Origin: Schmidtea polychroa
Lineage: Eukaryota
DNA: 64,000 bases
NCBI GenBank assembly: GCA_044892525.1
Contig: CM097885.1
Span: forward strand, 930,001-994,000
Direction of reading: 5' to 3'
Part shown: positions 3,690 to 51,000 of the stretch, one piece after another
Layout: each line of letters opens with the position of its first letter
How positions within the stretch are numbered: the stretch's first letter is position 1
Position numbers and translations under genes: made by a program
The notes under the pieces: generated by a model
What the model was told of the DNA's origin: nothing
Database searches by the model: none
What the model saw: only the letters and a program-made list of their open reading frames with translations

Positions 3690-4320
3690 TCGCTGGTCAT
3701 GTTTTCGGTTATTGGGAGTCATTTCCTAATATTTTTGATTTCAAGTTTTGGCTGGGTGCTTTGTTTTGCCTGTGTTTTAATAGAATGGGAATAGGTACCT
3801 TTTCTCGGAGAGATGCTTTTTCAGGAATGGTGATGTTGAAGTGATGGACTCCTTCTCCTGGTAGTATTCCTCACTATATCTGCGTATGTTTTTGATGTAG
3901 GTTCTTTTGCATTCATTTTGTTTTCGTCTAAGTACCAAATGATATAGATAAATATTGGAACTGGGGCATAATTTATTCATAATCCGAAGGCTTCAATGGT
4001 TATACGTCAGCTGCCTCCTGGCTTCTCTGATAAAATTCTCTTTTTCTCCTTGGAATTGCCGCCCATTTCTGCGCAGTGCTAGGAATCTTATATTGGAGTG
4101 ATTCTCCGAAGCACTGGTAAACGGCGGGAGTTATAATGTAACGATTGTTTTTGGAATCTTGCATGTAATATTTTTACGGAAAAGAGGTGCTAGGAAGTGA
4201 TTCTCCTAAGCGCTGGGAAACGGCGGGAGTAATCTGGTAATAATTTGAGTTTCTGAATAACATTAAAGAAATATTTTCACAGTAAAAAAGGGGACCTCCA
4301 TCAGGCATTATCTTTTTCAT
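3690..4320 (-). mobile_element. 5' region of a NeSL/R5-like retrotransposon with two 28S-like motifs
   Basis: 3987-4040 is homologous to 28455-28510. AAGC.CTGG.AAACGGCGGGAGT occurs at 4108-4131 and 4208-4232, and is shared with 13397/20149 at the 5' end of the long R5-like copies. Confidence 0.55.
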
Positions 4321-4324
4321 TTTC

Positions 4325-5786
4325 CTAAACTTTTAATTTTTCTATTTCTTTAACCTTTTTATAGAAAACTTTATTATCCTTTTCTATATTTGAAAATTTT
4401 ACATTATTAAAAGCGAAAATATCATTAATACCGCAATTTTGATTATTAATTACCGTTATTTTAGCTTTCGGATAATTTTGAAATAATAAATATGGCATTT
4501 TCATCCTTTTCCTTGTCATCGGGCGAGATTTTTTTCCAATCGGCCAGTGTGATTCCATCAAGTCCTGGAGCAGTGTTTTGGAGTTGTGAGAAGATTTATT
4601 ATTTAGGATCTTCGTTATCTCCTCTTTAGGTTTTGTTTTATATTTGGATCTTTTAATACAAAGCAGTTCATTTTTAGTCCAGGTTTTTTTATGGACAATG
4701 TCTGCTGGTTTTTTAATTTTCTTTTTTTTCCATTTCATTAAGGGCTGTTTCACGGTCCATATTGTCGTTATTTAAATTAGTTATTAAACCTTTAATAAGT
4801 GGGAGGTATTTTTTAATATTATCGTCAGGTATTTTGTAGGTAAAATAGTTTTCCTCAACAGTTCTGATATTTTTTTGCATAATAGTAATTTTAGGAATGG
4901 TTAGTTTAGTATTCTTTATCAGGCATTGGATGAGGTGGCACACAAAAAAGGCAACTGGGATATTCATATTTTGTGAGTGTAATTGGGAGTGGTGAAACGT
5001 TTTTTTGCAGATCAAGAATGGTATTCAGTATGCTATTAGCGAAAGATAAGTGTATGGAGTGGCTAGCGTCAAGTAAAGAATCTATTATAACAGCTAATTG
5101 TCTCCGCTTATCAAGATAAAAGAAAAACCAGTTGTCTTTGCCATTTGACATTGGCATAATAATTTCGTTCCACTCTGCGAAGTCTTTGAAGGGGAAGGAG
5201 GAGAAGAAGGTTTTGTAATTATGCTGGATTAGAAAGTTATCAACATAAGGGTCAACAAACATGGTAGATTTTTTCATGGCGAAAGAGTAAACGAAGCTGA
5301 TTCCTTATCCACGTTATTATAAGCAATCATTTGGTATTTCTCTACTATAGTTAAAATCAAAACCATTTAGACATTCTTCATCTGATGAAGTTTGTTTCCC
5401 TTCCTTTGTGTTTCAAGGTTATCTGCAATCACGTCCTGGGTGTTTTATACATTATTCATAATATTATAGTCATAATACTATTGTTAGTATTTGGTGGTAT
5501 TGGGTGGCGTTGAGCTATATGATTGATAATGCCATCTACTGGGACCCAGCTCCTACATGCACAGTATATATCGGCATTTTTAACAATAATTCCATTTCTA
5601 TGTTTTTTTGACATGTGCTCCCATACATATGCCAATGGAGTGTCCCAATTCCACGTCGTAAAGCATTTTTTGTAGTTCTTATTGTGGCTATTACATGTGA
5701 GGTGATTATTTTTGTCGATTTTAATAAATATCATTTTGAGGGTATCTTTATCATTTTGTATTTCATGCACATATTGTTCGACATAT
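4325..5786 (-). pseudogene. NeSL/R5-like retrotransposon fragment (subfamily B): C2H2 fingers + Ulp1-like domain
   Basis: Frameshifted ORFs 5456-5845, 4906-5277, 4713-5015 and 4325-4753. CxC..H..H finger and EIIMPMSNGKDNWFFFYLD motif. Homologous to 9522-11471 and near-identical to 24140-25310. Confidence 0.75.
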
Positions 5787-6026
5787 GCATTGACAATACA
5801 GATAATGTAAATACAAATAATGTATATAGTAATAATATTTATCAATTAATAACAAAATTACGGTTTATGAAGTAGGGGGACTCGATCTTGTCTGTCTACG
5901 CCAGTTAATCAAGCTTGACACGTAAATCCGGATAGGGGCTTCAAGCGGCTCACAAACACTGTGCGTTTTTCGCCGGAGTTATATTGCCTAACCCTACGGC
6001 GAGGCATCCTAAATAACTACCAGATA

Positions 6027-6219
6027 AAGGGACTTTTATTCCCTACTACAAGGGACTTTTATTCCCTACTACAAGGGACTTTTATTCCCTACTACAAGGG
6101 ACTTTTATTCCCTACTACAAGGGACTTTTATTCCCTACTACAAGGGACTTTTATTCCTTACTACAAGGGACTTTTATTCCCTACTACAAGGGACTTTTAT
6201 TCCCTACTACAAGGGACTT
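6027..6219. repeat. 23-bp tandem repeat (AAGGGACTTTTATTCCCTACTAC) x8.4 in R2 3' UTR
   Basis: Units start at 6027, 6050, 6073, 6096, 6119, 6142, 6165 and 6188, with a partial unit at 6211. No spacers. Confidence 0.95.
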
Positions 6220-6317
6220 GGGATGTAGACCAGTCGTCCACCGTAAACACTACGTTAACCACTGGAACAATCATGTGAGTCATATCAAATGTCTGAAGTG
6301 AATAAGGAAGTTTGGAA

Positions 6318-6809
6318 TTAGAGTCGACACCACGCACTATATAGTCGCGAAGTCCAGCTAAGTGTTTTTAGGGATAAAATCATCACATCATGCTTGCCGA
6401 GATTGATTCTCAACAAGCTCTCAAAGGAGGGCATAGCCATAAGACCTCGCCAGTTTAGAGTGACTGCTCCAAAACCCACCTCATATGCTCCTTTATTTTT
6501 AATCCATTGTGTGACTTCATCCACTTGATACTTACCTGCCTTCTCAGTTTTTCTAGTATAAAGATTCTCGTTGTCGTTGATGATCTGGACGTCCAGAACC
6601 ATCGCTTGGTTGTCTTTAAGAAGAATAAGATCCGGTTTGCGGTAGCTCTCCTTGTAGGGAGTAATCGGTTCTATTAATGCCTCCCACCCTTTGCTCCGTG
6701 CCGCAGACACTATATAATTAACTAACTTATTGTGCCTTTTTACTCTCAGACCATGCAAGTCTGGGCACTTCTGAGCAACCGACTTTACATATAAGAGGTC
6801 CTTTTGCAT
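6318..6809 (-). pseudogene. R2 CCHC zinc knuckle + restriction-like endonuclease (RLE) domain
   Basis: QKCP..HGLRVKRHNKLV, EP....RKPDLILLK...VLDVQI, K..KY, GAVTLNWRG are hallmark RLE motifs. Confidence 0.9.
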
Positions 6810-9521
6810 GCATTCTACTGATCCTAGTGGGTGTATACATTAAACTACCTCTCACTTTTACTGCATTGATGAAAGTTCGACCAGTCATCAATTTCCCTCG
6901 TGCAGTTAACAATTTGTGTGCACACTGCACTTCTTTGGCTTCACAAAGCCCTTTACCATCTAATTTACTATAAAGATTCATAGCAGTGGCTTCGTAGTAT
7001 TGTTTCTTGGTGGCTATTGGCGTCTCTTGTAGGAACAACGGTTTATTCCATTTTGCCAATTGTGACCTGACCGCTTCGTTCTCGGCCAATAAGCTTATCT
7101 TCTCATCCCTGCACTCTTCAATACGTCTAAGCCTATCACGCTTCGCAAATAGTACCTCTGTCAACAGGGCTGGCACACCCAGCCCCCATTTTTAATTTTA
7201 CTATTTATAAATGATGAACAAGTATCGGTTGGCAGGTGTAACCATTTGCGAACCGGGCCTCTAGTCATTTTATCCAATACCCCTAATTCGGTGGTATCGG
7301 TTTCCCCTAGCACAGCCTCATGTAAGATACCTGGTATCAAAAAGTCACTAATGCACCTCTAACTTTTGTTGCGGCTTAATAGGTGCCCTCGTAATATACT
7401 CAAGACGTTTAGTATAAAGATTGGATAGCTTTTTAGTAGTGCGACCAAGGGCTCCAAATTGGATCCCAAAATATTTATAGTAGTCGTCAGCTGACATGGC
7501 AGGGAACTCTTCCCCATCAGCACTTACGTTTTCGCTAGTAACCATCCATTTTTTCTGCTTACCGTCCCCTCGCGCTATAATGGAGGCACCTTAAAAGCAA
7601 TTCGGGATAACCCGCTAATTTCGCCGCTCTCATGATACTATCATGATTAACAGAATCGAAGGTCTTTTTCATATCGACAAAGGCAATTGCTACATTCCTA
7701 AATTTAGTTCGCGCATCAGAAAGGATGCAATCCAGCAAAGTGGTGTTTTCAAGGCACCCATCCACTGGCTAGCTTGAAGAGCGCAGCATGCGGTATAGTT
7801 CTCAAGGCCTTCGCGCTAATGCCGTCAGGACCACTAGCCGTTTTCAATTTCATCTTTTTCACAGCAGCTGCGATCTCCTCCAATGAGATGTGTGCAGCTA
7901 CTGACTTATCCTCAGTTGTCCTCTGGACAGGCCGGGTATCGGGTTCAGACTCTTTTTCGAAAACCTGTTTCCAATAGTCCCCTCTACCCGGCATTGGATC
8001 ATCCTCCAACAGCAGACTATCCAGCTTACCTTCAAGGATAGTGCTAGCGGCCGCACTTCGATCCTTCTGGAATAATCTCTGCAAATCCCCATAAATAGCT
8101 CTCTTCTTAGCTACCTTTATGTGCTTTTTAACCTTTGTACCATCCACGGGGACCTGGTACGTTTGGTTAAACTTGTTTTTCCTCTTTTTGAGTTTTACTT
8201 GAAACTGCTTAGTTACTGATAAGCAATATTCATCAAGCAAAACTCGTTGAGAATTTTCATCTTCAGTAAGGATGATCCTATCCAGTTGGTCCTCATGCCA
8301 AATGCTATGACCCTTGCTTCGAGGGAATTTCCTTAAAATAGTCATGATGTCTGGAGATGGACTCGTGGCTTGTATGTTCTCCATCGCCTCCTCCATGCCC
8401 ATCCCCTTCATCTTGTCTTCTAACTCTTTAAACACTGCTTTATATTTATTACTATCTAAGTGTTTGCGAATGGATTCCTTTGAACGTTTGAAGGCTGAAC
8501 ATCCAAGGTGAAGTATATCAAGAAGGTGAGATTGAGGTCTATAACGATTTTCAAGGTGAAGTTGAGCCATGAGGAGCTCTTCTTCATTACTCCAGTAATA
8601 AGCAGGTTTATTGGAAAGTTTCCTCAAGATGGCCTCTTCACGTAAGGTGCGATGGGATTTAGATATTTTACTTGAAACTGCTTAGTTACTGATAAGCAAT
8701 ATTCATCAAGCAAAACTCGTTGAGAATTTTCATCTTCAGTAAGGATGATCCTATCCAGTTGGTCCTCATGCCAAATGCTATGACCCTTGCTTCGAGGGAA
8801 TTTCCTTAAAATAGTCATGATGTCTGGAGATGGACTCGGGGCTTGTGGGTTCTCCATCGCCTGCTAACTCTTTAAACACTGCTTTATATCAGAACGTGTT
8901 CATTTCGGTTATCATGTCATCAGGAGTAATGATTTTTGGAGAGGCAGTGATGATCGGATTATCATTGTTGTCGAGGTCGGTATTGGAATTGAAGTTGATG
9001 AATTAGCATGGATATTTGATCTAGATGCTCAGTCGTAAGGGGTTCGGATAGGTCTTGATAGTTTGAGTTGATGGAGTTTATGAGTTCCGATATGGAAGTT
9101 GGATGGTCTTCATTAAGTTGATCATTTTCTTGGTTATTTTGGTGGATAAGTCTGGGTATTTGATTCAGATCTTCAGTAGCAAGGCGTTCGGAGAGGTCTG
9201 GATTTTGGTTAGTAGGATCATCAGGAGGCTTTTATAGCTAGTCTCTGAGTATTGGAGGTCAGCCATTTGCAGGGAGGGCATGATCTAAATAAATAAGTTT
9301 CGGGGCAGGAAGGCTCCCATGCAAAGTTTATAGCGAGAAATAAGTACTTATTATAATATATATTATAAGGAGTTAGTGAAGGTTGAGGTAAGTATATTAG
9401 TATTAATAGTTAATAGAGGTGTTGATTATAGTATCAATAGTATAATAATAATGATTATAGTATTAATAAAAACAACTAAAAAGACCACCAAATAGGCAGA
9501 ACCCCTACAAGGATTCCTACA

Positions 9522-12500
9522 TTAACCCATTCGGGTACGAAAGGATTTCCAGCATATTGGTGATCTGGAATTACGAAGGATGTTGTTACATAAGGCAAGG
9601 ATGAGCTCAAAGTTAGGAGATATCTTTCTCCAATCGCTTAGGGAGATTTTATCGGTACCAGGGGCAGTATTGTCGAGTTGGCAGAAGATACTTTTAATGT
9701 CATCAATGTCAAAGGGAATGATGGTTAATGATTCAGAGAGTGCTGGGTACTGATAGTTAAGGTTAAATGTGCAATCGGAGGTTTTGCTAGCAAAAAGTTT
9801 TAAAATATGATCCATATTTGGTGTATGTGTTTTCATTTGATTATTTAAGATTTTTGAAATTTCCTCTTTAGGAGCAAATTTATATTTTTGTCTCTTGGTA
9901 AATACCAGCTCTTTACTAACCTTATAATTTTTGTGAATAATGTCCGATGCTTTCTTTGTGATGTATTTATGAGGATTAATGCTTCCATTAATTCTCTCAA
10001 TCTCACTTAAGGCAGCATCGCATTCAATTAGATTGTTATTTAGATTAATAATTAGACAATTGATAAATGGTCGGAATTTCCGCACATCATCATTTGGCAA
10101 TTTGCAATAATTATAATTATTTATAGTAGTTTTAATATCATTAATCATATTAGTTACATTAGGGCAAGTTAATTTTTTACGTTTAATAAGGCATTCGATA
10201 AAGTGGCATATATAGAAAGCAGAGTCTGTAGGTACGAAGCAACGAGGGTATGCAGGATTTTGAAGTACAATTTGGACAGGGCTTACAATATTTTGGAGAT
10301 CAAGAATGGTTTCGAGGATATTCTGAGCTAATAAGAGGTGAGTAGAGAGGCTATCGTCAAGAAGCGGGTCAATGAGTACAGCAAGTTTACGATGTTTGTC
10401 AAGTAGAAAGAAGAACCAGTTGTCTTTACCATCAGACATGGGCATGATAATCTCATTCCAGTGAGCAAATTCAGAGAAAGGAAAGGTGGCAAAGAAGGTT
10501 ACATAGTTATGCTGAATAAGTGCATTTCCTATGAATGGGTCTACAAAAATAGAAGAGTTTTTCAAGGCATTTGAAAAGATATATGCCTTGATTGCATGTT
10601 GTGACCATCATGTCGACTCCTTCTCAACATTATTACCGAAGATAAGGGTATCAGGAAGGGGACGTTTGACAATTTCGCTTTCAGAGAAAATAGCCTCAAA
10701 TTCTTGCGACTCAAGAATTGGGCGCAAGTTGTTCACATTTTCAAGGGGGCTATCCTGTATCTGGGAGATCACAAGCGGAGTGGGGATATTGCCTGGATAC
10801 ACATAAGGTTCTGGGTGATATTCGAGGATATGTTGTCGAATAAGGTGATTGGAGATCCATGATCCACAGAAGCAGTATATTTCCTCGTCAGGGTAAAAGA
10901 TAAGTTTTTTATGTTTGACCTTTATGTGGTTAATAATGGTCATAAGGGGGGTGTCGATGTCAAAGATGGTTTTACATTTATTGCGATTTTTACTATAGTT
11001 GAAGCATATGAGGTTATTGGAGGGTGAAATCCGGATTTCAGCGCGGCTCATATATTCCAGGTCGCATTGGTCTATGTGTTGAAAGTGGGTGATGTGATTA
11101 TAAATTTGTTTGAAAGTTATTGGATTTGGCGCAAATTTATTCTCACCAGGAGTTCTACATTGAATGCAATCGATAAGAGTATTTTCGTCAATTTTTAATC
11201 TATGAAAGTCCCACGCGTGCTTAAAGATTTTTTTGCGATTATGGACAGAAACAGGACTGCAAAGTGTTGTCCTGCATTTGGACCTGCATTCGATTTTGCC
11301 CCTACCATTAAGTTTGAGAAGTATTTTGTTATCAAGTTCACTCTCATCTGCTGTTTTTGGGACGAAGGTATTGTGTGTGTGTTTGGCCAATGTTATGGGT
11401 GTGAGGTATTTAGGAGATGGGGCAGGGATATTATTTGCAATCACTTGTATTTTTTTATTAAATACTTCCATTTGTGATTGTATTCTTAATGCCTCTTGGA
11501 TTTCGTTGCATTCAGATTCAGAAGGAGTAGGTGCGGTGACTTAAGGTGTACTGCTAAGCTCAGTAGCGTTGGTAGTTTTAGATTGGATAAATTCAGGCGT
11601 ATTATGAAGACAGGCAGTTGTCATAGGGTTGTCAGTGTTGTTGTTGGAAGAGGAAGAGGCTGTGGGCTGGAGAGGTGGTTCTTGGTCGATAGAGGCTACA
11701 CTGCTGCTCGATAGATTCACATCATCTATGTCCGAGTTAAAAAGATCATTATTTGCCTGGGGATTTACAAGAGATTGAGATGGGTTTTGAGGAGTTTGAG
11801 AATTATACTCATCTATTGGAAGGGGGTCAATGGTGTCATCAAAGTCACAGCTGTAGTGTGAAGTGTCAAGAATGTATTCAGAGCAAGAGGAGGACGAGGG
11901 GTTAAGAGAGAGATCAGAGTCATTGTCAATAGTATCATTTAATGGAGAGCGTTTAACATGGGGAAGGGCAATGAGGGAATCATCAGTATTGTTCTCATAA
12001 TTATTAATTTTATTTTTATTTTTATAAATAGAGTAGAGGGTTGTGTATTTACCCTTACGTATGATTTTTTTAACAAAACAAGATTTTATTACTTTACTAT
12101 TGTTATCGTTAAAAATTGGAGGAAGGTTTTTAAGATCCTTGGGCTTATGGATGAAATCATTCCGGATAGGCTCAGAATAATGACGTTTCAAGGAAGTTCC
12201 AAGGTTTTTATTAGAAAGAGTTTGAGGTATAGTGTAAGTATTTCGATTGTCAGGTACATAATTAGCCATATTCACAGGAGAAAGAAAGGTATCAGTTGTT
12301 TGTGAGTTTGGAGTTTGATTATAAACTAAGTTGTTTAAGGTAGGTTCAGAACTAACGAGCTTTTCGCTGAAGGTGACAGTCTTTGAAGAGGCGAGTCGGC
12401 CGCAGGCCGGCGAGCTGCGTGTTTTCTTATGTTCCGAAGGAACACGAGAAAAATTTTTTTGAGAAAGAGTGTGGTTAAATAAGTGATATTTAAACAAAGA

Positions 12501-13456
12501 AAAGTCTTTATTTAAAATAGATAGTTTATTTAAATTAATAAATTTTGATATATTTTGTATTATAATATTAATTAACTCACTAGAAAATCCATTAAAAGGG
12601 ACTTCTGTGAAGTTTGTATTTTTATACTCCATAATTAATTTTTTAATGATATATTTAATTTTATTTTTAAAAAATTTCTCATATTTATAATTAATTTGAT
12701 TATCACAATAATTATTCAAATTCTTATTTATCACTATTTTTAAATTTATCATTACAAGTTAAATTATCATTATCATGAGAGTCATAAGTATAATTATTAG
12801 AAGGTCTAAAATTATTAATACTATAATCTCTATAATAATTTTGATTATGATTACCCTTTTTTAATAAGTGAATCTTTCGAGCTGGGCAAAAAGTTTTCCA
12901 AGAGGTGGCATATATATCGGGAGTTTCATTCACTTTAGCATTCTTCTCAGAATAGTATCTCTTAGGCATACGGTTCACTTCATTGTTACAGGTAAGAGAA
13001 CTTCCATTATTGATCGGCTCCTTGTGATTAATTGTATCCGTTATTTTAGTACGTGCTGTGGCAAATGTGCCATATTGCTTGAGGATCATCCTAGATGGGC
13101 AGTAAGATCTGATTTTCCTCGTTTCATATGTATCAGCAGGTGATTCGTCGGGTGGGTTCTCATCGGTTCTATATATATGTTTAGGATGCAATAAATTTAC
13201 TTTATCGATTGGTTTATCTCTGGAAGAAGAGCCTCTCCCATGTGGATCTGAGGGGCCGAAGGAGATACATGAGGTCGAATATCATCAGCTCTATTAAAAA
13301 GTTTAGATAGTAATAACAATAAGTTGTTCTTAATATTGTCTCCATTATTGGAGCTTCTTCCATCCAGGTAGGTATTATTATTCCTGGAATTCTGCTAAGC
13401 ACTGGTAAACGGCGGGATTCTCGAATATCTTGTCAAAAATTTTCATTGGTATCATA
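9522..13456 (-). mobile_element. NeSL/R5-like RLE retrotransposon (subfamily A), 3'-truncated in early RT, copy 1
   Basis: 11541-12752, 10608-11471 and 9522-10565 lie in one frame separated by single stops. Four C2H2-like fingers, an Ulp1/C48-like domain, then the RT start (TAPGTDKI..SDW...P..WKSFRT). An Ulp1-like domain before RT is typical of the NeSL clade. Confidence 0.8.
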
Positions 13457-15420
13457 TCGTTCTCGGCCAATAAGCAGGTGTAACCATTTGCGAACCGCGC
13501 CTCTAGTCATTTTATCCAATACCCCTAATTCGGTGGTATCGGTTTCCCCTAGCACAGCCTCATGTAAGATACCTGGTATCAAAAAGTCACTAAGCACCTC
13601 TAACTTTTGTTGCGGCTTAATAGGTGCCCTCGTAATATACTCAAGACGTTTAGTATAAAGATTGGATAGCTTTTTAGTAGTGCGACCAAGGGCTCCAAAT
13701 TGGATCCCAAAATACTTATAGTAGTCGTCAGCTGACATGGCAGGGAACTCTTCCCCATCAGCACTTACCTTTTCGCTAGTAACCATCCATTTTTTCTGCT
13801 TACCGTCCCCTCGCGCTATAATGGAGGCACTCTTACTTGGATTAACACTAAGGCCATTAGAAACCAATTCATTTAAAACCGTTGTTAACAGGTGTTCTAA
13901 CACCGCTTTGGTTTCACTAACTATTACTAAGTCGTCGGCATACGCCAAAATGGGATAGGTTATTCCCCTCACCTTATAGCCAATACCAGTTTCATATGCT
14001 TTCTGGATGGCGAGATCGATGACATTGTTGAACAGCGCGGGTGAAAGAGGGTCGCCCTGTTTCGCCCCCCTGTTAAACTTTGCCCCAATGCCATCGACCG
14101 TAGTTGTAGCATTGTTATAGCTCTCTTTAACATACCTTAAAAGCAATTCGGGATAACGCGCTAATTTCGCCGCTCTCATGATACTATCATGATTCACAGA
14201 ATCGAAGGCCTTTTTCGTATCGACAAAGGCAATTGCTACATTCCTAAATTTAGTTCGCGCATCAGAAAGGATGCAATCCAGCAAAGTGGTGTTTTCAAGG
14301 CACCCATCCACTGGCTTAAACCCCTTCTGTGCATTCGAACCCCAGCGACAACTACTTACTCTTGCCGCCAAGATCTTATTAAGTGTCCTAGTTAACACTG
14401 AGTTAACGGAAATAGGCCTATAGTCCCCTGGACTTTTGGGGTTTTCAACTTTTGGGATTAATGAGGTTCGTGCTGTCTTTAATACTGGGGGTAAATGTCC
14501 TAGAGCTAATATAAGATTAAACAACTTGAAGAGCGCAGCATGCGGTATAGTTCTCAAGGCCTTCGCGCTAATGCCGTCAGGACCACTAGCCGTTTTCAAT
14601 TTCATCTTTATCACAGCAGCTGCGATCTCCTCCAATGAGATGTGTGCAGCTACTGACTTATCCTCAGTTGTCCTCTGGACAGGCCGGGTATCGGGTTCAG
14701 ACTCTTTTTCGAAAACCTGTTTCCAATAGTCCCCTCTACCCGGCATTGGATCATCCTCCAACAGCAGACTATCCTGCTTACCTTCAAGGATAGTGCTAGC
14801 GGCCGCACTTCGATCCTTCTGGAATAATCTCTGCAAATCCCCATAAATAGCTCTCTTCCTAGCTACCTTTATGTGCTTTTTAACCTTTGTACCATCCACG
14901 GGGACCTGGTACGTTTGGTTAAACTTGTTTTTCCTCTTTTTGAGTTTTACTTGAAACTGCTTAGTTACTGATAAGCAATATTCATCAAGCAAAACTCGTT
15001 GAGAATTTTCATCTTCAGTAAGGATGATCCTATCCAGTTGGTCCTCATGCCAAATGCTATGACCCTTGCTTCGAGGGAATTTCCTTAAAATAGTCATGAT
15101 GTCTGGAGATGGACTCCGGGCTTGTGGGTTCTCCATCGCCTCCTCCATGCCCATCCCCTTCATCTTGTCTTCTAACTCTTTAAACACTGCTTTATATTTA
15201 TTACTATCTAAGTGTTTGCGAATGGATTCCTTTGAACGTTTGAAGGCTGAACATCCAAGGTGAAGTATATCAAGAAGGTGAGATTGAGGTCTATAACGAT
15301 TTTCAAGGTGAAGTTGAGCCATGAGGAGCTCTTCTTCATTACTCCAGTAATAAGCAGGTTTATTGGAAAGTTTCCTCAAGATGGCCTCATCACGTAAGGT
15401 GCGATGGGATTTAGATATTT
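13433..15420 (-). pseudogene. R2 ORF fragment (Myb + complete RT), truncated at both ends
   Basis: ASGPDGI, LIPK, DYRPISV, QKGF, DTKKAFDSV, GAKQGDPLSPALFN, AYADDL, YKYFG. Ends after RKWLHL through a deletion. Confidence 0.93.
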
Positions 15421-16273
15421 TACTTGAAACTGCTTAGTTACTGATAAGCAATATTCATCAAGCAAAACTCGTTGAGAATTTTCATCTTCAGTAAGGATGA
15501 TCCTATCCAGTTGGTCCTCATGCCAAATGCTATGACCCTTGCTTCGAGGGAATTTCCTTAAAATAGTCATGATGTCTGGAGATGGACTCGGGGCTTGTGG
15601 GTTCTCCATCGCCTGCTAACTCTTTAAACACTGCTTTATATCAGAACGTGTTCATTTCGGTTATCATGTCATCAGGAGTAATGATTTTTGGAGAGGCAGT
15701 GATGATCGGATTATCATTGTTGTCGAGGTCGGTATTGGAATTGAAGTTGATGAATTAGCATGGATATTTGATCTAGATGCTCAGTCGTAAGGGGTTCGGA
15801 TAGGTCTTGATAGTTTGAGTTGATGGAGTTTATGAGTTCCGATATGGAAGTTGGATGGTCTTCATTAAGTTGATCATTTTCTTGGTTATTTTGGTGGATA
15901 AGTCTGGGTATTTGATTCAGATCTTCAGTAGCAAGGCGTTCGGAGAGGTCTGGATTTTGGTTAGTAGGATCATCAGGAGGCTTTTATAGCTAGTCTCTGA
16001 GTATTGGAGGTCAGCCATTTGCAGGGAGGGCATGATCTAAATAAATAAGTTTCGGGGCAGGAAGGCTCCCATGCAAAGTTTATAGCGAGAAATAAGTACT
16101 TATTATAATATATATTATAAGGAGTTAGTGAAGGTTGAGGTAAGTATATTAGTATTAATAGTTAATAGAGGTGTTGATTATAGTATCAATAGTATAATAA
16201 TAATGATTATAGTATTAATAAAAACAACTAAAAAGACCACCAAATAGGCAGAACCCCTACAAGGATTCCTACA

Positions 16274-19200
16274 TTAACCCATTCGGGTACGAAAGGATTT
16301 CCAGCATATTGGTGATCTGGAATTACGAAGGATGTTGTTACATAAGGCAAGGATGAGCTCAAAGTTAGGAGATATCTTTCTCCAATCGCTTAGGGAGATT
16401 TTATCGGTACCAGGGGCAGTATTGTCGAGTTGGCAGAAGATACTTTTAATGTCATCAATGTCAAAGGGAATGATGGTTAATGATTCAGAGAGTGCTGGGT
16501 ACTGATAGTTAAGGTTAAATGTGCAATCGGAGGTTTTGCTAGCAAAAAGTTTTAAAATATGATCCATATTTGGTGTATGTGTTTTCATTTGATTATTTAA
16601 GATTTTTGAAATTTCCTCTTTAGGAGCAAATTTATATTTTTGTCTCTTGGTAAATACCAGCTCTTTACTAACCTTATAATTTTTGTGAATAATGTCCGAT
16701 GCTTTCTTTGTGATGTATTTATGAGGATTAATGCTTCCATTAATTCTCTCAATCTCACTTAAGGCAGCATCGCATTCAATTAGATTGTTATTTAGATTAA
16801 TAATTAGACAATTGATAAATGGTCGGAATTTCCGCACATCATCATTTGGCAATTTGCAATAATTATAATTATTTATAGTAGTTTTAATATCATTAATCAT
16901 ATTAGTTACATTAGGGCAAGTTAATTTTTTACGTTTAATAAGGCATTCGATAAAGTGGCATATATAGAAAGCAGAGTCTGTAGGTACGAAGCAACGAGGG
17001 TATGCAGGATTTTGAAGTACAATTTGGACAGGGCTTACAATATTTTGGAGATCAAGAATGGTTTCGAGGATATTCTGAGCTAATAAGAGGTGAGTAGAGA
17101 GGCTATCGTCAAGAAGCGGGTCAATGAGTACAGCAAGTTTACGATGTTTGTCAAGTAGAAAGAAGAACCAGTTGTCTTTACCATCAGACATGGGCATGAT
17201 AATCTCATTCCAGTGAGCAAATTCAGAGAAAGGAAAGGTGGCAAAGAAGGTTACATAGTTATGCTGAATAAGTGCATTTCCTATGAATGGGTCTACAAAA
17301 ATAGAAGAGTTTTTCAAGGCATTTGAAAAGATATATGCCTTGATTGCATGTTGTGACCATCATGTCGACTCCTTCTCAACATTATTACCGAAGATAAGGG
17401 TATCAGGAAGGGGACGTTTGACAATTTCGCTTTCAGAGAAAATAGCCTCAAATTCTTGCGACTCAAGAATTGGGCGCAAGTTGTTCACATTTTCAAGGGG
17501 GCTATCCTGTATCTGGGAGATCACAAGCGGAGTGGGGATATTGCCTGGATACACATAAGGTTCTGGGTGATATTCGAGGATATGTTGTCGAATAAGGTGA
17601 TTGGAGATCCATGATCCACAGAAGCAGTATATTTCCTCGTCAGGGTAAAAGATAAGTTTTTTATGTTTGACCTTTATGTGGTTAATAATGGTCATAAGGG
17701 GGGTGTCGATGTCAAAGATGGTTTTACATTTATTGCGATTTTTACTATAGTTGAAGCATATGAGGTTATTGGAGGGTGAAATCCGGATTTCAGCGCGGCT
17801 CATATATTCCAGGTCGCATTGGTCTATGTGTTGAAAGTGGGTGATGTGATTATAAATTTGTTTGAAAGTTATTGGATTTGGCGCAAATTTATTCTCACCA
17901 GGAGTTCTACATTGAATGCAATCGATAAGAGTATTTTCGTCAATTTTTAATCTATGAAAGTCCCACGCGTGCTTAAAGATTTTTTTGCGATTATGGACAG
18001 AAACAGGACTGCAAAGTGTTGTCCTGCATTTGGACCTGCATTCGATTTTGCCCCTACCATTAAGTTTGAGAAGTATTTTGTTATCAAGTTCACTCTCATC
18101 TGCTGTTTTTGGGACGAAGGTATTGTGTGTGTGTTTGGCCAATGTTATGGGTGTGAGGTATTTAGGAGATGGGGCAGGGATATTATTTGCAATCACTTGT
18201 ATTTTTTTATTAAATACTTCCATTTGTGATTGTATTCTTAATGCCTCTTGGATTTCGTTGCATTCAGATTCAGAAGGAGTAGGTGCGGTGACTTAAGGTG
18301 TACTGCTAAGCTCAGTAGCGTTGGTAGTTTTAGATTGGATAAATTCAGGCGTATTATGAAGACAGGCAGTTGTCATAGGGTTGTCAGTGTTGTTGTTGGA
18401 AGAGGAAGAGGCTGTGGGCTGGAGAGGTGGTTCTTGGTCGATAGAGGCTACACTGCTGCTCGATAGATTCACATCATCTATGTCCGAGTTAAAAAGATCA
18501 TTATTTGCCTGGGGATTTACAAGAGATTGAGATGGGTTTTGAGGAGTTTGAGAATTATACTCATCTATTGGAAGGGGGTCAATGGTGTCATCAAAGTCAC
18601 AGCTGTAGTGTGAAGTGTCAAGAATGTATTCAGAGCAAGAGGAGGACGAGGGGTTAGGAGAGAGATCAGAGTCATTGTCAATAGTATCATTTAATGGAGA
18701 GCGTTTAACATGGGGAAGGGCAATGAGGGAATCATCAGTATTGTTCTCATAATTATTAATTTTATTTTTATTTTTATAAATAGAGTAGAGGGTTGTGTAT
18801 TTACCCTTACGTATGATTTTTTTAACAAAACAAGATTTTATTACTTTACTATTGTTATCGTTAAAAATTGGAGGAAGGTTTTTAAGATCCTTGGGCTTAT
18901 GGATGAAATCATTCCGGATAGGCTCAGAATAATGACGTTTCAAGGAAGTTCCAAGGTTTTTATTAGAAAGAGTTTGAGGTATAGTGTAAGTATTTCGATT
19001 GTCAGGTACATAATTAGCCATATTCACAGGAGAAAGAAAGGTATCAGTTGTTTGTGAGTTTGGAGTTTGATTATAAACTAAGTTGTTTAAGGTAGGTTCA
19101 GAACTAACGAGCTTTTCGCTGAAGGTGACAGTCTTTGAAGAGGCGAGTCGGCCGCAGGCCGGCGAGCTGCGTGTTTTCTTATGTTCCGAAGGAACACGAG

Positions 19201-20208
19201 AAAAATTTTTTTGAGAAAGAGTGTGGTTAAATAAGTGATATTTAAACAAAGAAAAGTCTTTATTTAAAATAGATAGTTTATTTAAATTAATAAATTTTGA
19301 TATATTTTGTATTATAATATTAATTAACTCACTAGAAAATCCATTAAAAGGGACTTCTGTGAAGTTTGTATTTTTATACTCCATAATTAATTTTTTAATG
19401 ATATATTTAATTTTATTTTTAAAAAATTTCTCATATTTATAATTAATTTGATTATCACAATAATTATTCAAATTCTTATTTATCACTATTTTTAAATTTA
19501 TCATTACAAGTTAAATTATCATTATCATGAGAGTCATAAGTATAATTATTAGAAGGTCTAAAATTATTAATACTATAATCTCTATAATAATTTTGATTAT
19601 GATTACCCTTTTTTAATAAGTGAATCTTTCGAGCTGGGCAAAAAGTTTTCCAAGAGGTGGCATATATATCGGGAGTTTCATTCACTTTAGCATTCTTCTC
19701 AGAATAGTATCTCTTAGGCATACGGTTCACTTCATTGTTACAGGTAAGAGAACTTCCATTATTGATCGGCTCCTTGTGATTAATTGTATCCGTTATTTTA
19801 GTACGTGCTGTGGCAAATGTGCCATATTGCTTGAGGATCATCCTAGATGGGCAGTAAGATCTGATTTTCCTCGTTTCATATGTATCAGCAGGTGATTCGT
19901 CGGGTGGGTTCTCATCGGTTCTATATATATGTTTAGGATGCAATAAATTTACTTTATCGATTGGTTTATCTCTGGAAGAAGAGCCTCTCCCATGTGGATC
20001 TGAGGGGCCGAAGGAGATACATGAGGTCGAATATCATCAGCTCTATTAAAAAGTTTAGATAGTAATAACAATAAGTTGTTCTTAATATTGTCTCCATTAT
20101 TGGAGCTTCTTCCATCCAGGTAGGTATTATTATTCCTGGAATTCTGCTAAGCACTGGTAAACGGCGGGATTCTCGAATATCTTGTCAAAAATTTTCATTG
20201 GTATCATA
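16274..20208 (-). mobile_element. NeSL/R5-like retrotransposon (subfamily A), copy 2
   Basis: Duplicate of 9522-13456 at +6752. Confidence 0.8.
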
Positions 20209-22290
20209 TCGTTCTCGGCCAATAAGCAGGTGTAACCATTTGCGAACCGCGCCTCTAGTCATTTTATCCAATACCCCTAATTCGGTGGTATCGGTTTCCC
20301 CTAGCACAGCCTCATGTAAGATACCTGGTATCAAAAAGTCACTAAGCACCTCTAACTTTTGTTGCGGCTTAATAGGTGCCCTCGTAATATACTCAAGACG
20401 TTTAGTATAAAGATTGGATAGCTTTTTAGTAGTGCGACCAAGGGCTCCAAATTGGATCCCAAAATACTTATAGTAGTCGTCAGCTGACATGGCAGGGAAC
20501 TCTTCCCCATCAGCACTTACCTTTTCGCTAGTAACCATCCATTTTTTCTGCTTACCGTCCCCTCGCGCTATAATGGAGGCACTCTTACTTGGATTAACAC
20601 TAAGGCCATTAGAAACCAATTCATTTAAAACCGTTGTTAACAGGTGTTCTAACACCGCTTTGGTTTCACTAACTATTACTAAGTCGTCGGCATACGCCAA
20701 AATGGGATAGGTTATTCCCCCCACCTTATAGCCAATACCAGTTTCATATGCTTTCTGGATGGCGAGATCGATGACATTGTTGAACAGCGCGGGTGAAAGA
20801 GGGTCGCCCTGTTTCGCCCCCCTGTTAAACTTTGCCCCAATGCCATCGACCGTAGTTGTAGCATTGTTATAGCTCTCTTTAACATACCTTAAAAGCAATT
20901 CGGGATAACCCGCTAATTTCGCCGCTCTCATGATACTATCATGATTCACAGAATCGAAGGCCTTTTTCGTATCGACAAAGGCAATTGCTACATTCCTAAA
21001 TTTAGTTCGCGCATCAGAAAGGATGCAATCCAGCAAAGTGGTGTTTTCAAGGCACCCATCCACTGGCTTAAACCCCTTCTGTGCATTCGAACCCCAGCGA
21101 CAACTACTTACTCTTGCCGCCAAGATCTTATTAAGTGTCCTAGTTAACACTGAGTTAACGGAAATAGGCCTATAGTCCCCTGGACTTTTGGGGTTTTCAA
21201 CTTTTGGGATTAATGAGGTTCGTGCTGTCTTTAATACTGGGGGTAAATGTCCTAGAGCTAATATAAGATTAAACAACTTGAAGAGCGCAGCATGCGGTAT
21301 AGTTCTCAAGGCCTTCGCGCTAATGCCGTCAGGACCACTAGCCGTTTTCAATTTCATCTTTATCACAGCAGCTGCGATCTCCTCCAATGAGATGTGTGCA
21401 GCTACTGACTTATCCTCAGTTGTCCTCTGGACAGGCCGGGTATCGGGTTCAGACTCTTTTTCGAAAACCTGTTTCCAATAGTCCCCTCTACCCGGCATTG
21501 GATCATCCTCCAACAGCAGACTATCCTGCTTACCTTCAAGGATAGTGCTAGCGGCCGCACTTCGATCCTTCTGGAATAATCTCTGCAAATCCCCATAAAT
21601 AGCTCTCTTCCTAGCTACCTTTATGTGCTTTTTAACCTTTGTACCATCCACGGGGACCTGGTACGTTTGGTTAAACTTGTTTTTCCTCTTTTTGAGTTTT
21701 ACTTGAAACTGCTTAGTTACTGATAAGCAATATTCATCAAGCAAAACTCGTTGAGAATTTTCATCTTCAGTAAGGATGATCCTATCCAGTTGGTCCTCAT
21801 GCCAAATGCTATGACCCTTGCTTCGAGGGAATTTCCTTAAAATAGTCATGATGTCTGGAGATGGACTCCGGGCTTGTGGGTTCTCCATCGCCTCCTCCAT
21901 GCCCATCCCCTTCATCTTGTCTTCTAACTCTTTAAACACTGCTTTATATTTATTACTATCTAAGTGTTTGCGAATGGATTCCTTTGAACGTTTGAAGGCT
22001 GAACATCCAAGGTGAAGTATATCAAGAAGGTGAGATTGAGGTCTATAACGATTTTCAAGGTGAAGTTGAGCCATGAGGAGCTCTTCTTCATTACTCCAGT
22101 AATAAGCAGGTTTATTGGAAAGTTTCCTCAAGATGGCCTCATCACGTAAGGTGCGATGGGATTTAGATATATGGACTCCACGTCCCCTCAGCGTTAGGAA
22201 AGGCAAAAATCAATACTCACAGACAAACGACTGTTCCACATCCCTCTCCAGTTTTGTAGCGTTGTTATTTTTATTTGTACTCATTTTCAT
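20185..22290 (-). pseudogene. R2 ORF, N-terminus to RT (single C2H2 finger + Myb + RT), 3'-truncated
   Basis: In-frame ATG at 22290 (MKMSTNKNN...SFVCEY*FLPFLTLRGRGVHISKSH). The TGA at 22210-22212 is TGC (Cys) in the 42.9-kb copy, restoring CxxC-x12-H-x4-H. Full RT motifs follow. Confidence 0.93.
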
Positions 22291-22599
22291 TTTACTGGTT
22301 GTTGTGGGAGTTCTTTCGTCTTAGATATCCTCCCACATGATACCTAACTGACCATAAGAGGCCTCACCAAAGGAAGTGGTGGGGGGAAGAGAAAAGGGTC
22401 CCTATGAAAAAATTCTAAACAAAAATGCCCTCATCACAAACAGTGATGAGGGCTAATACTTCAATTGTTAATATTTATAAAACTTTATTCAAAAGTATAG
22501 TTTGAAAAGCTAATCAAATAATAAAACTTTAATTAAATTAAAAACAAGAGAAAAGAAAATGTTAAAAAAAACTTTAAAAAAAAAAATGAACATCAAAAC

Positions 22600-22710
22600 T
22601 TAAAATAAAATAAAATAAAATAACATAGAATAAAATAGAATAAAACAAAATAAAATAAAATAAAATAGAATAAAATAAAATAAAATAGAATAAAATAAAA
22701 TAAAATAACA
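22600..22710. repeat. (TAAAA/TAGAA)n microsatellite
   Basis: Directly visible. Confidence 0.9.
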
Positions 22711-24139
22711 TATAAAGTTACCTCCCTCAATTAAGTTAAATCCCTAATACTATTAAAAATTCATAAAAAGAAAATATAAAAAATATCAAAAGAAAAACAA
22801 ATATAAAATAAGATTAAAAAATAGAATAAAGTAAAATTCTTAGAAGTCATACCTCCCTCAACTAAAAAAAAAGATTCCCTAATTATATGGTACCTGAATA
22901 AAATTGGTAGGTTAACCACTTTGGCAGACTGATATTAAAAATAATAACTTGTCATAGATACTCAGCCTTTTACCAAAGTATATGGGAATTACTTCTTTAA
23001 AGCACCCCGTCAGCTCATCCAATTTTTAAAGAATATGAATAATATGAATTATTAAAATTAAAATTATAAAGTTATAAAACAACATAAAAAAAATGAAAAA
23101 AAAAGGTCGTAATGGTGGCCCTTACGTGTGCCTAGAATGTTGATCAGATATTCTAGGACTTACTACCCTTAGTGAATCATCTAACAGTTGCGATCTGTCT
23201 TGATAATTCACCAGGATACCCAACTTTCAAATCGGCGTGGGAAACCATCTGCAATGCTCCACCATTTGGCCAATACAGATATCGACGTTTCGTTCATTGA
23301 CCGGCTGTCGACCTTACCTCCTCCCTTTGGACCACAAAAAAGGCTTTTCAGTTCTGAAATCAAAACTTTCTGGTCATTTTTTGTTGGTTGGTCCGGGCCG
23401 CACCCTCCTCCGAGCACTTGTCATTACCTGACCAATGGGCATCCAATTTCGGGAGGTTTGGATGCAACACCTAGTCCCCTTTGTCTTAAGACATCAGGCC
23501 GCCCCCATCTCTGGGCACTTGTCGTAACCTGACCAATGGGCAACATTAAGGCTGTTGACTTTTCCCTTCTAGTCCACAATAAAGGCTTTCCAGTTCTAAA
23601 ATCAAAACTTTCCAGTCACTTTTTGCTTGGTTGTCCTAGGCCGCACTCTTTTAAGAGCACAATTGTCGTTACCCGACCAGCGGTGGACCGTTTTCGGTGC
23701 CCGTAAACAGTTAGAGGGCGTATATCCCCTTTACCAATCACCCAAGGGCAGTTGGTTGTACTTCTTAATTGAAGTCACGTCTTTTCAGACTTAAGTATCA
23801 AAGCCGCTTTGCAGCCAATAGTTCGTAGCAACCATTGTAAGTGTATCCAGCGGGTGAATCCCCCGCAGATCTTCTTACGTCCTATTTAGTTTCTTCCCCA
23901 CGGTAGCGACCCGTCGTTCCAATACTAAGGACTACATACATTCCATGACATAATTTCCACCTCAAAACTCAGGGAAAGATCTCTTAAGCAGGACTTTAAC
24001 CTCGCGAACGATCCTGACCAAGAGTTTCGAACTTAACTTCTGAAGATACCTGTTTAAAGCCCGAAAACGCCCGAACGGTTTGCCTCAGTAAGTCTGTTTC
24101 CATTACTCATGAACCTGCACGTTTATTTGGAGTATGATA

Positions 24140-25585
24140 TTTGAATCTTTTAATACAAAGCAGTTCATTTTTAGTCCTGGTATTTTTATGGACAATGTCT
24201 GCTAGTTTTTTAATTTTCTTTTTTTTCCATTTCATTAAGGGCTGTTTCACGGTCCATATTGTCGTTATTTAAATTAGTTATTAAACCTTTAATAAGTGGG
24301 AGGTATTTTTTAATATTATCGTCAGGTATTTTGTAGGTAAAATAGTTTTCCTCAACAGTTCTGATATTTTTTTGCATAATAGTAATTTTAGGAATGATTA
24401 GTTTAGTATTCTTTATCAGGCATTGGATGAGGTGGCACACAAAAAAGGCAACTGGGATATTCATATTTTGTGAGTGTAATTGCGAGTGGTGAAACGATTT
24501 TTTGCAGATCAAGAATGGTATTCAGTATGCTATTAGCGAAAGATAAGTGTATGGAGTGGCTATCGTCAAGTAAAGGATCTATTATAACAGCTAATTGTCT
24601 CTGCTTATCAAGATAAAAGAAAAACCAGTTGTCTTTGCCATTTGACATTGGCATAATAATTTCGTTCCACTCTGCGAAGTCTTTGAAGGGGAAGGAGGAG
24701 AAGAAGGTTTTGTAATTATGCATGATTAGATCAACATAAGGGTCAACAAAGATGGTAGATTTTTTCATGGCGAAAGAGTAAACGAATGCCTTTATTGTGT
24801 CCTGGGACCATCAAGCTGATTCCTTATCCACGTTATTTGTGAAAAAGCAATCATTTGGTATTTCTCTACTATAGTTAAAATCAAAACCATTTAGACATTC
24901 TTCATCTGATGAAGTTTGTTTCCCTTCCTTTGTGTTTCAAGGTTATCTGCAATCACCTCCTGGGTGTTTAATACATTATTCATAATATTATAGTCATAAT
25001 AATATTGTTAGTATTTGGTGGTATTGGGTGGCGTTGAGCTATATGATTGATAATGCCATCTACTGGGACCCAGCTCCTACATGCACAGTATATATCGGCA
25101 TTTTTATCAATAATTCCATTTCTATGTTTTTTTGACATGTGCTCCCATACATATGCCAATGGAGTGTCCCAATTCCACGTCGTAAAGCATTTTTTGTAGT
25201 TCTTATTGTGGCTATTACATGTGAGGTGATTATTTTTGTCGATTTTAATAAATATCATTTTGAGGGTATCTTTATCATTTTGTATTTCATGCACATATTG
25301 TTCGACATGTCTGTAAATGTTTTTGTGCGTAACCGGATATATTACATAGCGTTCGTTGGCCTTTGCATTGGCCGCAGTCAATGATGGAGTGTTCTGTGAT
25401 AATGATGTTGTGCGTACTGATCCAATTTTTCCCTATTGTAAATGGAAATCGCTCCAAAAAAAGGTGTGCGTAAGTGGTGTCTGCATCTACATTTCGCTCT
25501 GGAGTTGAAGTAGTAGAGGTTAGGATCTTGCCTGTATTGACTGCATTGCCAATACCAATGGGTTCAAATCCCATTTCGGTCAATT
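24140..25585 (-). pseudogene. NeSL/R5-like fragment (subfamily B), second copy
   Basis: ORFs 25287-25583, 24980-25381, 24403-24768 and 24210-24512. Zinc fingers + Ulp1-like domain. Near-identical to 4640-5786. Confidence 0.75.
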
Positions 25586-26332
25586 TTTTTTCAAATTTTT
25601 TTTCAACAAAATATTGATCAGCATACTCGATTTAGTACTTTTACAAATTTTTAAGGTGATTGGTCAACGGCAACTCTTGGAAATTTAAGATCAAAAACGT
25701 TTTAACTTAAGCTACCAATGTACATTAGATAATTTAATTAAATTTACATTACACATTTAACAAATTTGCTAATAACTTTTACAATATTAATTGTTACAAA
25801 GTAATTTATATATCAATAAATAGATAATTAAATTTACAATATAAATTATATCAAATTTGTTAATTAGTGTCAGATTTGAAAATTTACTATGTTGGTTTGA
25901 AATATTTTACCACCAAGTTAACATTTTGACCAACAAATTTTTAGATTTTTAATATTATTTAAATATTGAAGTACCACAAAATAGAGAAAAAAATTTAGAA
26001 TTAGAATCATCTTTGAAAATAAAAATACTATCAAAACTTAATTTTTTATTGGAAATTTTCGAAATCACGTTGCCGAAATTTTACCACCGCGGCGAAGTTT
26101 TCATTAATAACTTTTTAAATAATAATTATTATAAAAATATTTTAGCACCGCTGGAAAGATAATAAAATTTAGATTATAAATCATATCGGAACTTTAAAAT
26201 ACTAGCAAAATTAAAATTATTCTTGGCAAATATTGCAATCCCAATACCATGTGTTGTGTAACTAATTAATTAATTACAAAATTAAACTTTTCAAATTTAA
26301 AATTTTGCCAAAAAGTCATAGTAACTCTAACG

Positions 26333-26510
<178 letters not shown>

Positions 26511-26817
26511 TACGATCACTTCAGATTTTTTTGAAAAATTTTTTTCATTAGCATTTGTACACTAGCCAAAATACTTAGTCGAATTTCTTGGACTATTTCA
26601 GATGGTCGTCTCAATTTTTTAAATAAATAAGCCTATTTACAACAGCAATATACTGTAGTAAATAGGCTTAAAATTTATCTGTGTGATGAACTGGTAAACG
26701 GCGGTCTTTTTTACTCCCGCTGTTGACCATTTGACTACTAAGCAGTTACTGTTAACCAGTTATTATTCAGTTATATAGAAATTTATCAATAGCACTGCTA
26801 CCCAGGAATACAAATAT

Positions 26818-27127
26818 AAGTTACCACAGGGGTAACTGGCTTGTGGTAGTTAAAAAACAGCCAATAGCCAGTTAACTGAATGCAAAAATGCATTGAAAAC
26901 ACTATTACCACTAGGTTAATTGGATTATGGTAGTTAAAAAACATCCAATAGCCAGTTAACCGAATGCATTGAAAACACTATTACCACGGGGTTAATTGGC
27001 TTATGGTGGTTAATAAACATCCAATAGCCAGTTAACCGAATGCATTGAAAACACTATTACCACGGGGTTAATTGGCTTATGGTGGTTAAAAAACATCCAA
27101 TAGCCAGTTAACCGAATGCCTTGAAAA
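26818..27127. repeat. Four ~76-bp tandem hairpin repeats downstream of 28S
   Basis: TTACCAC starts at 26821, 26905, 26981 and 27057. Each unit has GG(T/G)TAA(C/T)TGG(C/A) ... GCCAGTTAAC inverted arms. Confidence 0.93.
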
Positions 27128-27292: not shown

Positions 27293-27706
27293 CAAATCAT
27301 CGCGTCAGATGGGGATGAAGTTCAAAATCTCGCAGTTTACACCACTCGAATTCTTACGCTTCCCCGACCGTAAAGTAAGTCGTCTACAAACGATTTAATG
27401 CCAACACGTAAATCATTAAAAATGATTCAAACATCCAAACTATTTTCATAGAATGGTTAGAGTTTAAATATATGGCTAAGCCACATCCACTAACTTGCGT
27501 TAATGAATAATAAAATTGCCTCATTACGAGGATGGCACAAAATATCATGATTTTTAGGCGAGATTCAGACTTAGAGGCGTTCAGTCTTAATCTCTCGGAT
27601 GGTAGCTTCGTGCCACTGACCTTTCGATCAAGCACATTTACCAGTGATCCGAATCTGCGGTTCCTCTCGTACTGAGCAGAATTACTATTATCATGACAAA
27701 TTATAT

Positions 27707-27743
<37 letters not shown>

Positions 27744-27802
27744 TCCAGCTCACGTTCCCTATTAGTGGGTGAACAATCCAACGCTTTGCGAATTCTACTT
27801 CG

Positions 27803-27840
<38 letters not shown>

Positions 27841-27886
27841 GACGTCGCTTTGAACGCTTGGCCGCCACAAGCCAGTTATCCTTGTG
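27293..27886 (-). rRNA. 28S rRNA: 28S (LSU) rRNA gene, 3'-terminal ~590 nt (5'-truncated, probably non-functional)
   Basis: Minus strand reads GGATAACTGGCTTGTGGCGGCCAAGCG...GATCCTTCGATGTCGGCTCTTCC...GACCGTCGTGAGACAGGTTAGTTTTACCCTAC, the sarcin-ricin loop AGTACGAGAGGAAC (~27660-27673), GACTGAACGCCTCTAAGTC, and ends near GATTTG. Confidence 0.97.
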
Positions 27887-50624: not shown

Positions 50625-51000
50625 TTGACTGATTCATTTTTCTCAGATAAAATTTGTTCTGTAATCGGGAAATTCAAGGATGAGAATAAAGGAAATCAAT
50701 ATAAAGAATGGGTGTTTCTTCGTCCCAAGTGCTCCTCACTCCAAGGCGATAAAACACTCTAAAAGCCAAAGGAATAAGACTTACAAATTCTAATATCACC
50801 CATGAAGCTTATAAAAAAAGTGTATACTGATGGTGGAACAGTGAGCATCCCATTAAAAAAGAATAGGAAGTGTCAATCATCAGTTGTATACTTTCATGAC
50901 AGAAAAACGAGCTCTCCAATGTTTGGACGATAAAAGGTATTGGTACAATTGTAATGAAAGCTATGCCTACGGTCACTATAAGATTCGTCACATGCATATT
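50625..51000 (+). pseudogene. pPolB subfamily-2 C-terminal fragment in the macrosatellite (also ~55017-55392, ~59642-60017)
   Basis: GKFKDENKG...FLRPKC...LDDKRYW...YAYGHYKI, same as 31493-31860. Confidence 0.88.

Follow-up and report, generated by a model that had tools for sequence, protein, structure and literature searches.

Two diverged lineages of a non-LTR retrotransposon carry the same in-frame TGA codon, and purifying selection acts in the frame of this stop on both sides of it. Both lie in the window, which is the whole stretch of 64,000 nucleotides analysed here. Judging from the sequences, readthrough of the UGA with insertion of tryptophan is the best reading of this conserved stop, and we consider it probable. 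Family A has the minus-strand reading NNVEKEST*WSQHAIKAYIFSNAL, its TGA being at 10608-10610 and again at 17360-17362, and family B has the minus-strand reading NNVDKESA*WSQDTIKAFVYSFAM, its TGA being at 24811-24813; the three positions, the strand and both peptides are as a sequence-only reading of this DNA had given them. The copies and their parts are the following:

10608-10610, minus strand: TGA of family A copy 1, in the context ACA TGA TGG, at the column where the Ulp1-like domain has its first Trp
17360-17362, minus strand: TGA of family A copy 2, a tandem duplicate with a period of 6752 nt
24811-24813, minus strand: TGA of family B, in the context GCT TGA TGG
9522-10607, minus strand: ORF2 remnant of A copy 1, 361 aa, with the rest of the putative Ulp1-like pseudo-protease, a linker and the start of the reverse transcriptase (RT), then truncated
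10611-12758, minus strand: ORF1 of A copy 1, with Cys/His zinc-finger-like motifs by eye and without a Pfam match
12724-13281, minus strand: upstream open frame of A copy 1, 185 aa, probably the 5' portion of ORF1
16274-20033, minus strand: A copy 2 as a whole, with the same parts as copy 1
16274-17359, minus strand: ORF2 remnant of A copy 2
17363-19510, minus strand: ORF1 of A copy 2, with a TAA at 18293-18295
19476-20033, minus strand: upstream frame of A copy 2
24137-25518, minus strand: family B, decayed end of ORF1 and start of ORF2, with an in-frame ATG at codon +15
4518-5785, minus strand: second B copy, its TGA gone through a 28-nt deletion between 5296 and 5295

Both A copies lie in a tandem duplication (7773-15418 equals 14525-22170, 99.86% identity, 6752-nt unit) and differ at one position within 9522-12758. 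Since they stem from a single duplication, the number of independent lineages is two, A and B, which share 63% identity across the 142 amino acids surrounding the stop. Both are decayed in the window: family A ends abruptly near 9540, at the start of the RT, and family B is frameshifted. The ORF1 of family A contains a second in-frame stop, a TAA (11541-11543 in copy 1, 18293-18295 in copy 2). The 28-nt deletion in the second B copy is out of frame, shows a TT microhomology and has no GT-AG ends. TGG occurs at the stop codon position in none of the three window copies that retain the codon. The frame of family A comprises seven TGG and this one TGA, and both A and B use TGG for the three other Trp codons of the aligned stretch.

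The alignment of A and B is gap-free across the stop. In successive upstream blocks their amino acid identity is 1/10, 1/10 and 3/12, then it rises abruptly to 6/8 at codons -8 to -1; this rise and the gap-free passage through the stop are what would be expected if the residues form one domain. The pN/pS ratio between A and B is 0.10 for codons -8 to -1, 0.22 for codons +1 to +14 and 0.26 for codons +15 to +114, and across these blocks pS is 0.77-1.07 against a pN of 0.10-0.21, the synonymous sites being near saturation. Differences are in excess at third positions in all three (Fisher, p = 0.0013, 0.017 and 2e-11, respectively). Of the fourteen codons that follow the stop, eight encode the same amino acid in both families, and differences affect 9/14 third positions versus 7/28 first and second positions. 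The codon pairs (A/B) are TGG/TGG, TCA/TCC, CAA/CAG, CAT/GAC, GCA/ACA, ATC/ATA and AAG/AAG at +1 to +7, followed at +8 to +14 by GCA/GCA, TAT/TTC, ATC/GTT, TTT/TAC, TCA/TCT, AAT/TTC and GCC/GCC. Divided into sub-blocks, this stretch is not significant on either part alone (p = 0.057 for +1 to +6 and 0.15 for +7 to +14). The synonymous-type conservation that the sequence-only reading had noticed around the stop is thus confirmed before and after it, including by the substitution ratio that it had recommended computing for the fourteen codons downstream. Its remark that the ATG overlapping the stop (TGATG) lies in a non-conserved frame also holds: in the 42 nt that follow the stop, pN/pS is 1.75 in the -1 frame, that of the overlapping AUG, and 1.36 in the +1 frame, and the AUG frame closes after ~33 codons in family A and ~22 in family B. 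The low pN/pS at near-saturated synonymous sites indicates that ORF2 was constrained after the split of A and B while the stop was carried along; a conserved stop with in-frame purifying selection downstream is thus found in 2/2 lineages.

The TGA is located inside a domain with a predicted Ulp1/SENP fold. In an AlphaFold2 model in which the TGA was read as Trp (16 alignment rows, mean pLDDT 76), a single helix formed by residues 25-44 spans the stop, which is residue 31; the part that precedes the stop has a pLDDT of ~55, and intact relatives dominated the alignment. The model matches yeast Ulp1 (1euv_A, Z 15.9, rmsd 3.6, 175 aligned residues) from 14 residues before the stop onwards, and its top Foldseek match is 2hkp (E 2.2e-6). 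The profile of the N-terminal domain matches SENP1 (4e-11) and yeast Ulp1 (5e-10); Pfam returned no family for the ORF1 and ORF2 pieces of the window protein. In the repeats of two single-ORF relatives, P0022 and P0039, the residue aligned with the stop is the Trp of WFTDD, in agreement with the by-eye alignment of the sequence-only reading to the Trp of the Ulp1 WLND motif. In S5 Fig of PMC4640811, 12/12 NeSL/Utopia rows begin, by eye, with W, Y or C-W at the stop column. In the single-ORF RT elements P0014, P0022, P0039 and P0046, the RT is preceded by two or three Ulp1-like repeats in tandem. Both families have Asn in place of the catalytic His, and A also has Ser in place of the Cys, the Asp being kept; most relatives keep both His and Cys. 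Neither A nor B has the His-Asp-Cys triad of an active Ulp1/C48 cysteine protease, and, going by these substitutions, their Ulp1-like domain is probably a catalytically dead pseudo-protease. With the His lost in both families and the Cys in A, readthrough cannot be argued from a catalytic role of the Trp, which speaks against it.

Since the same stop is found in both lineages, in the Trp column and with gap-free constraint on both sides, readthrough would explain all of these observations. In that case, an ancestral single ORF would have changed TGG to TGA in the Trp column of the Ulp1 domain. Most ribosomes would terminate at the UGA, yielding the zinc-finger-like ORF1 protein, and a few would read through it and produce a full-length protein with the RT, so that the leak would set a gag-pol-like ratio. 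Trp would probably be the residue inserted at the UGA; in yeast, Trp represents 82% of the residues inserted at this codon (PMC4150775, section 18). The sequence-only reading had proposed readthrough, and the conservation, the Trp register and the unconserved AUG frame speak for it, the readthrough itself being what we infer from them. The 3' stimulatory structure that it had suggested looking for has no conserved form in A versus B: the 3' folding z-scores are -2.66 for A and -0.29 for B, with a hairpin in A alone, and the A/B consensus structure (-6.15 kcal/mol) has compensatory changes in 0/16 pairs. UGA-UGG-UC is common to A and B, which are two sequences only, and, as a conserved RNA structure was not found, the signal would probably be just a weak context (UGA-U). 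A comparable arrangement is known from Tca2 of Candida albicans (gag-UGA-pol), in which, according to PMC2194720, an in-frame UGA between the structural and RT ORFs is bypassed on one RNA; the same source reports that the Tca2 UGA junction by itself directed no readthrough in yeast. Tca2 is an LTR element whose stop lies between genes and may be followed by a pseudoknot, whereas the present stop lies within a folded domain, at its Trp column.

Several other scenarios may explain a stop in this position. One of them, which we regard as unlikely, is termination at the UGA followed by an in-frame restart at codon +15, ORF2 being then a separate protein. An ATG is present at +15 in both B copies and a near-cognate TTG in A, although the first in-frame ATG of the A copy 1 remnant is only found at +55. 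Reinitiation has precedents in non-LTR elements, having been proposed for LINE-1 and SART1, and the loss of the first helix might be tolerated in a protease that is apparently dead. Yet, restarting at +15 leaves unexplained the coding-type conservation of codons +1 to +14 (p = 0.017) and -8 to -1 (p = 0.0013). According to PMC5972666, from which these precedents are taken, SART1 and LINE-1 translate ORF2 from a bicistronic RNA, restarting either at a UAAUG overlap or downstream of a 63-nt spacer; in the present element, on the contrary, the frame of the overlapping AUG is unconserved and there is no spacer. The predicted proteins of several relatives start at +5 to +10, which would agree with a restart, but the residue at +5 is Val in P0036, and P0017 and P0031, which belong to one cluster, start at different codons, which suggests GTG/TTG starts chosen by the gene caller.

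A separate ORF2 mRNA, made through spliced-leader trans-splicing with an AUG from the leader or from an internal promoter, appears quite improbable. Flatworm leaders do carry an AUG (PMC9851317), the host being probably a flatworm, and A and B have the same in-frame AAG|GCA at +7/+8, but no pyrimidine tract precedes the AG at that position. A minor promoter has been reported in the Tca2 UGA junction (PMC2194720). Neither route to a separate mRNA would account for the conservation of codons -8 to +6.

We give very little credence to A-to-I editing, by which UGA would become UGI and be read as Trp on a fraction of the transcripts. Stop-to-Trp editing is known in hepatitis delta virus, and TGA is one A-to-G step away from the expected TGG. 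Nevertheless, no duplex around the codon is common to A and B and edited RNAs would retrotranspose as TGG copies, of which there are none among the three copies that retain the codon.

Other copies bear on a further scenario, decay, in which the stop would be a chance nonsense codon in two dead copies and active elements would have TGG. Logan contigs from four runs (of 15 runs on the list) were aligned to 16200-25600, X7 and X8 being only guessed to be RNA. At the TAA position of family A, 6/6 contigs from X1 and 5/5 from X5 read AAA, and one X1 contig has five extra letters at 19479 that would bring ORF1 and the upstream frame into register; both the TAA and the upstream frame break of A thus look like copy-specific decay. 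Positions 17360-17362 do not appear among the 40 variant rows listed, beyond which there are another 1669 rows, although the codon is bridged by X5 contigs 8 and 9 and X7 contig 16 (89-92% identity, X7 contig 16 spanning 828 nt with no gaps). This absence among the variant rows listed is indirect evidence that other A copies may have the TGA as well. The codon of family B is not covered by any listed contig piece. A joint at 17365-17607, without intron ends, occurs in contigs from X1 and X5.

Decay could invoke the degraded state of A and B, the other nonsense codon of A and the openness of P0036 at the stop column, as well as the dependence of the contig evidence on the variant rows listed. 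It nevertheless requires the same base to have mutated twice independently, which is unlikely given a single G/A difference in 159 G-bearing sites between the B copies, and a shared dead ancestor is excluded by the downstream pN/pS of 0.26 with near-saturated synonymous sites. Moreover, the TAA is copy-specific in the contigs and the TGA, among the variant rows listed, is not. We judge decay as poorly credible as editing. The remaining ways to bypass the stop seem, even jointly, the least probable: a start at the UGAUG with a frameshift (TGATG is present in A and B) was rejected, the overlapping AUG frame being unconserved and short; a small intron, for which A and B have in common a single GT..AG pair that preserves the frame (42 nt, -18 to +24), was rejected because the donors are poor, excision would take the best-conserved codons and X7 contig 16 is gap-free; selenocysteine was rejected because Rfam gave no match of SECIS type (E up to 1) and the column is Trp rather than Cys; and a host code in which UGA is Trp was rejected because every other Trp codon in the aligned stretch is TGG.

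The distribution of the boundary was studied in more distant proteins. A search of 1.84 billion representatives provided 22 matches, all from residue 316 on, after the stop at residue 311, and a profile search gave 22 matches at E up to 1e-40, many of them with PF02902 and PF00078. Fifteen relatives, each with a single N-terminal Ulp1-like domain and together making up ~11 families, were aligned; multi-repeat single-ORF proteins were left out, as were matches lacking the domain, duplicates from the same cluster and fragments that start later. The predicted RT proteins begin at +5 or later in 14/15 of these relatives (~10/11 families), 6 of the 15 at +5 to +10, these starts being gene-caller choices. 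The exception is P0036, which is open at the stop column, with a Glu, and begins 23 residues earlier; it nests (98/98) among relatives that begin at +5. In the tree, which included no named reference, family A sits on a long branch (1.92) in no starred group, and only the start of its RT survives. The starts of the relatives, known from the proteins alone, suggest an ORF boundary at or near the stop column in the wider lineage. No fused ORF1-ORF2 form was found among relatives of 143-1987 aa, nor did the 361-aa ORF2 find one among longer proteins (0/2474 candidates); the N-terminal alignment, a weak test, retrieved five longer proteins, all already known and none fused. The DNA of the relatives was found in 0/11 viral contigs and 0/3 prokaryote genomes, and the ESM Atlas had no usable match for P0033. 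Two loci out of 104 candidate stretches were retained by a metagenome scan for this DNA, and both were rejected as unrelated RT elements on translation.

Since about 10 of 11 relative families start their RT protein just after the column, the boundary may be old and widely shared, and we tentatively entertain, with more doubt than confidence, that a branch of ancient single-ORF retrotransposons with a restriction-like endonuclease (RLE) evolved a gag-pol-like two-product system by converting the conserved Trp codon of the Ulp1 domain into a leaky UGA, the readthrough of which brings the Trp back. If so, the ORF1/ORF2 layout would have arisen a second time in LINEs, and the two ORFs of R5 would be accounted for. 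A stop that is both conserved and readable within a folded domain would amount to a retrovirus-like ratio control for the RLE class and would give a one-codon, directly testable answer to the question of how R5-type elements produce their RT. ORF callers would then cut the front off such proteins, which matters when elements are mined as gene-insertion tools. RLE non-LTR elements are described as having a single ORF, and the translation of two-ORF non-LTR elements, where the literature covered describes it, relies on reinitiation (PMC5972666). None of the titles and abstract openings listed in the literature covered describes readthrough in an RLE element; the original R5 paper, Fell 2025 and Repbase, which are beyond this scope, may bear on the novelty of the proposal, and the R5 paper and Repbase may mention the stop.

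As for the identity of the element, its Ulp1-like domain is N-terminal to the RT, as in the NeSL clade, according to the match to 1euv_A (Z 15.9), the SENP1 profile match (4e-11) and the PF02902 and PF00078 of the relatives. Both A and B end before the C-terminal CCHC and restriction-like endonuclease motifs, which full-length relatives show by eye. The in-frame TGA of A and B departs from a single-ORF layout. R5 is said to have been described with two ORFs by Burke et al. in 2003 and is presumably an exception to that layout. A single ORF is stated for the R2 group of RLE non-LTR elements in PMC3636483. The flanks of A and B contain 28S-derived sequences, of which the main ones are:

26820-26845, minus strand: 28S-antisense motif corresponding to the 5' boundary of planarian LIN9_SM insertions, with 1 mismatch in 26 nt
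13402-13415, minus strand: 28S-antisense remnant just 5' of A, corresponding to the stretch upstream of the LIN24_SM/LIN26_SM site

The first motif is ~1.3 kb upstream of the recognizable coding part of B and was obtained in 0/100 shuffles; further 28S-antisense remnants are at 20154-20167, 26691-26704, 4114-4127 and 4213-4226. All these motifs are on the 5' side only, within degenerate repeats, the 3' junctions being lost. Similar 28S-derived flanks characterize R5 of Girardia tigrina and LIN9_SM, LIN24_SM and LIN26_SM of Schmidtea mediterranea, from which the present copies differ by the loss of most of the RT, the endonuclease and the 3' ends. PMC4640811 (section 10) assigns LIN and R5 to the same platyhelminth lineage within the NeSL clade, and from this placement together with the 28S-antisense flanks we infer an R5/LIN-like non-LTR retrotransposon of the NeSL clade and a planarian host. 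NeSL-1 of Caenorhabditis and Utopia-1_TSP also have a Ulp1-like domain upstream of the RT, with the same register of the first motif (PMC4640811). No named R5 or LIN protein was among the relatives matched in the protein searches, and the literature covered on R5 and LIN, which did not include the original R5 paper, gave no statement of a Ulp1-like domain, readthrough or a UGA in frame in these elements.

The window holds several other elements. Another non-LTR element with an RT (RVT_1 E 1e-31), R2-like by eye, is found at 13433-15433, 20185-22209 and 6318-8681 (minus strand); it is fragmented, has internal duplications and, within the tandem unit of 6752 nt, alternates with family A, and a short tandem repeat with units of a few dozen nt lies beyond its 3' end (6000-6300, minus strand). 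Around family B, the minus strand has ~4 degenerate tandem copies of a 28S-antisense LIN9-type target at 26820-27120, before the near-perfect 26820-26845 motif, and an isolated 3' piece of 28S rRNA at 27294-27943, in which clear 28S sequence begins, by eye, at the LIN9/28S target near 27880, as if cut by an insertion. Sense and antisense remnants of the 28S target adjoin at 26691-26725 (minus strand) and could form a hairpin near the 5' end of B, whose 5' region also includes a long (AAT)n tract (26330-26500, minus strand). The piece at 25539-25600, at the 5' edge of the coding remnant of B, is tRNA-like or SINE-like; ARAGORN detected no tRNAs, this piece included, and its contig depth is very high (~100,000 in the last X1 bin). 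Further along are remnants of a hAT-like transposase (35521-37381, minus strand), with weak Pfam matches below the cut-off, fragments of a protein-primed DNA polymerase B (37972-40370, plus strand; PF03175, E 4e-11), probably from a Polinton, and, from 48959 to 64000, AT-rich tandem units of ~4.4-4.6 kb with large internal inverted repeats.
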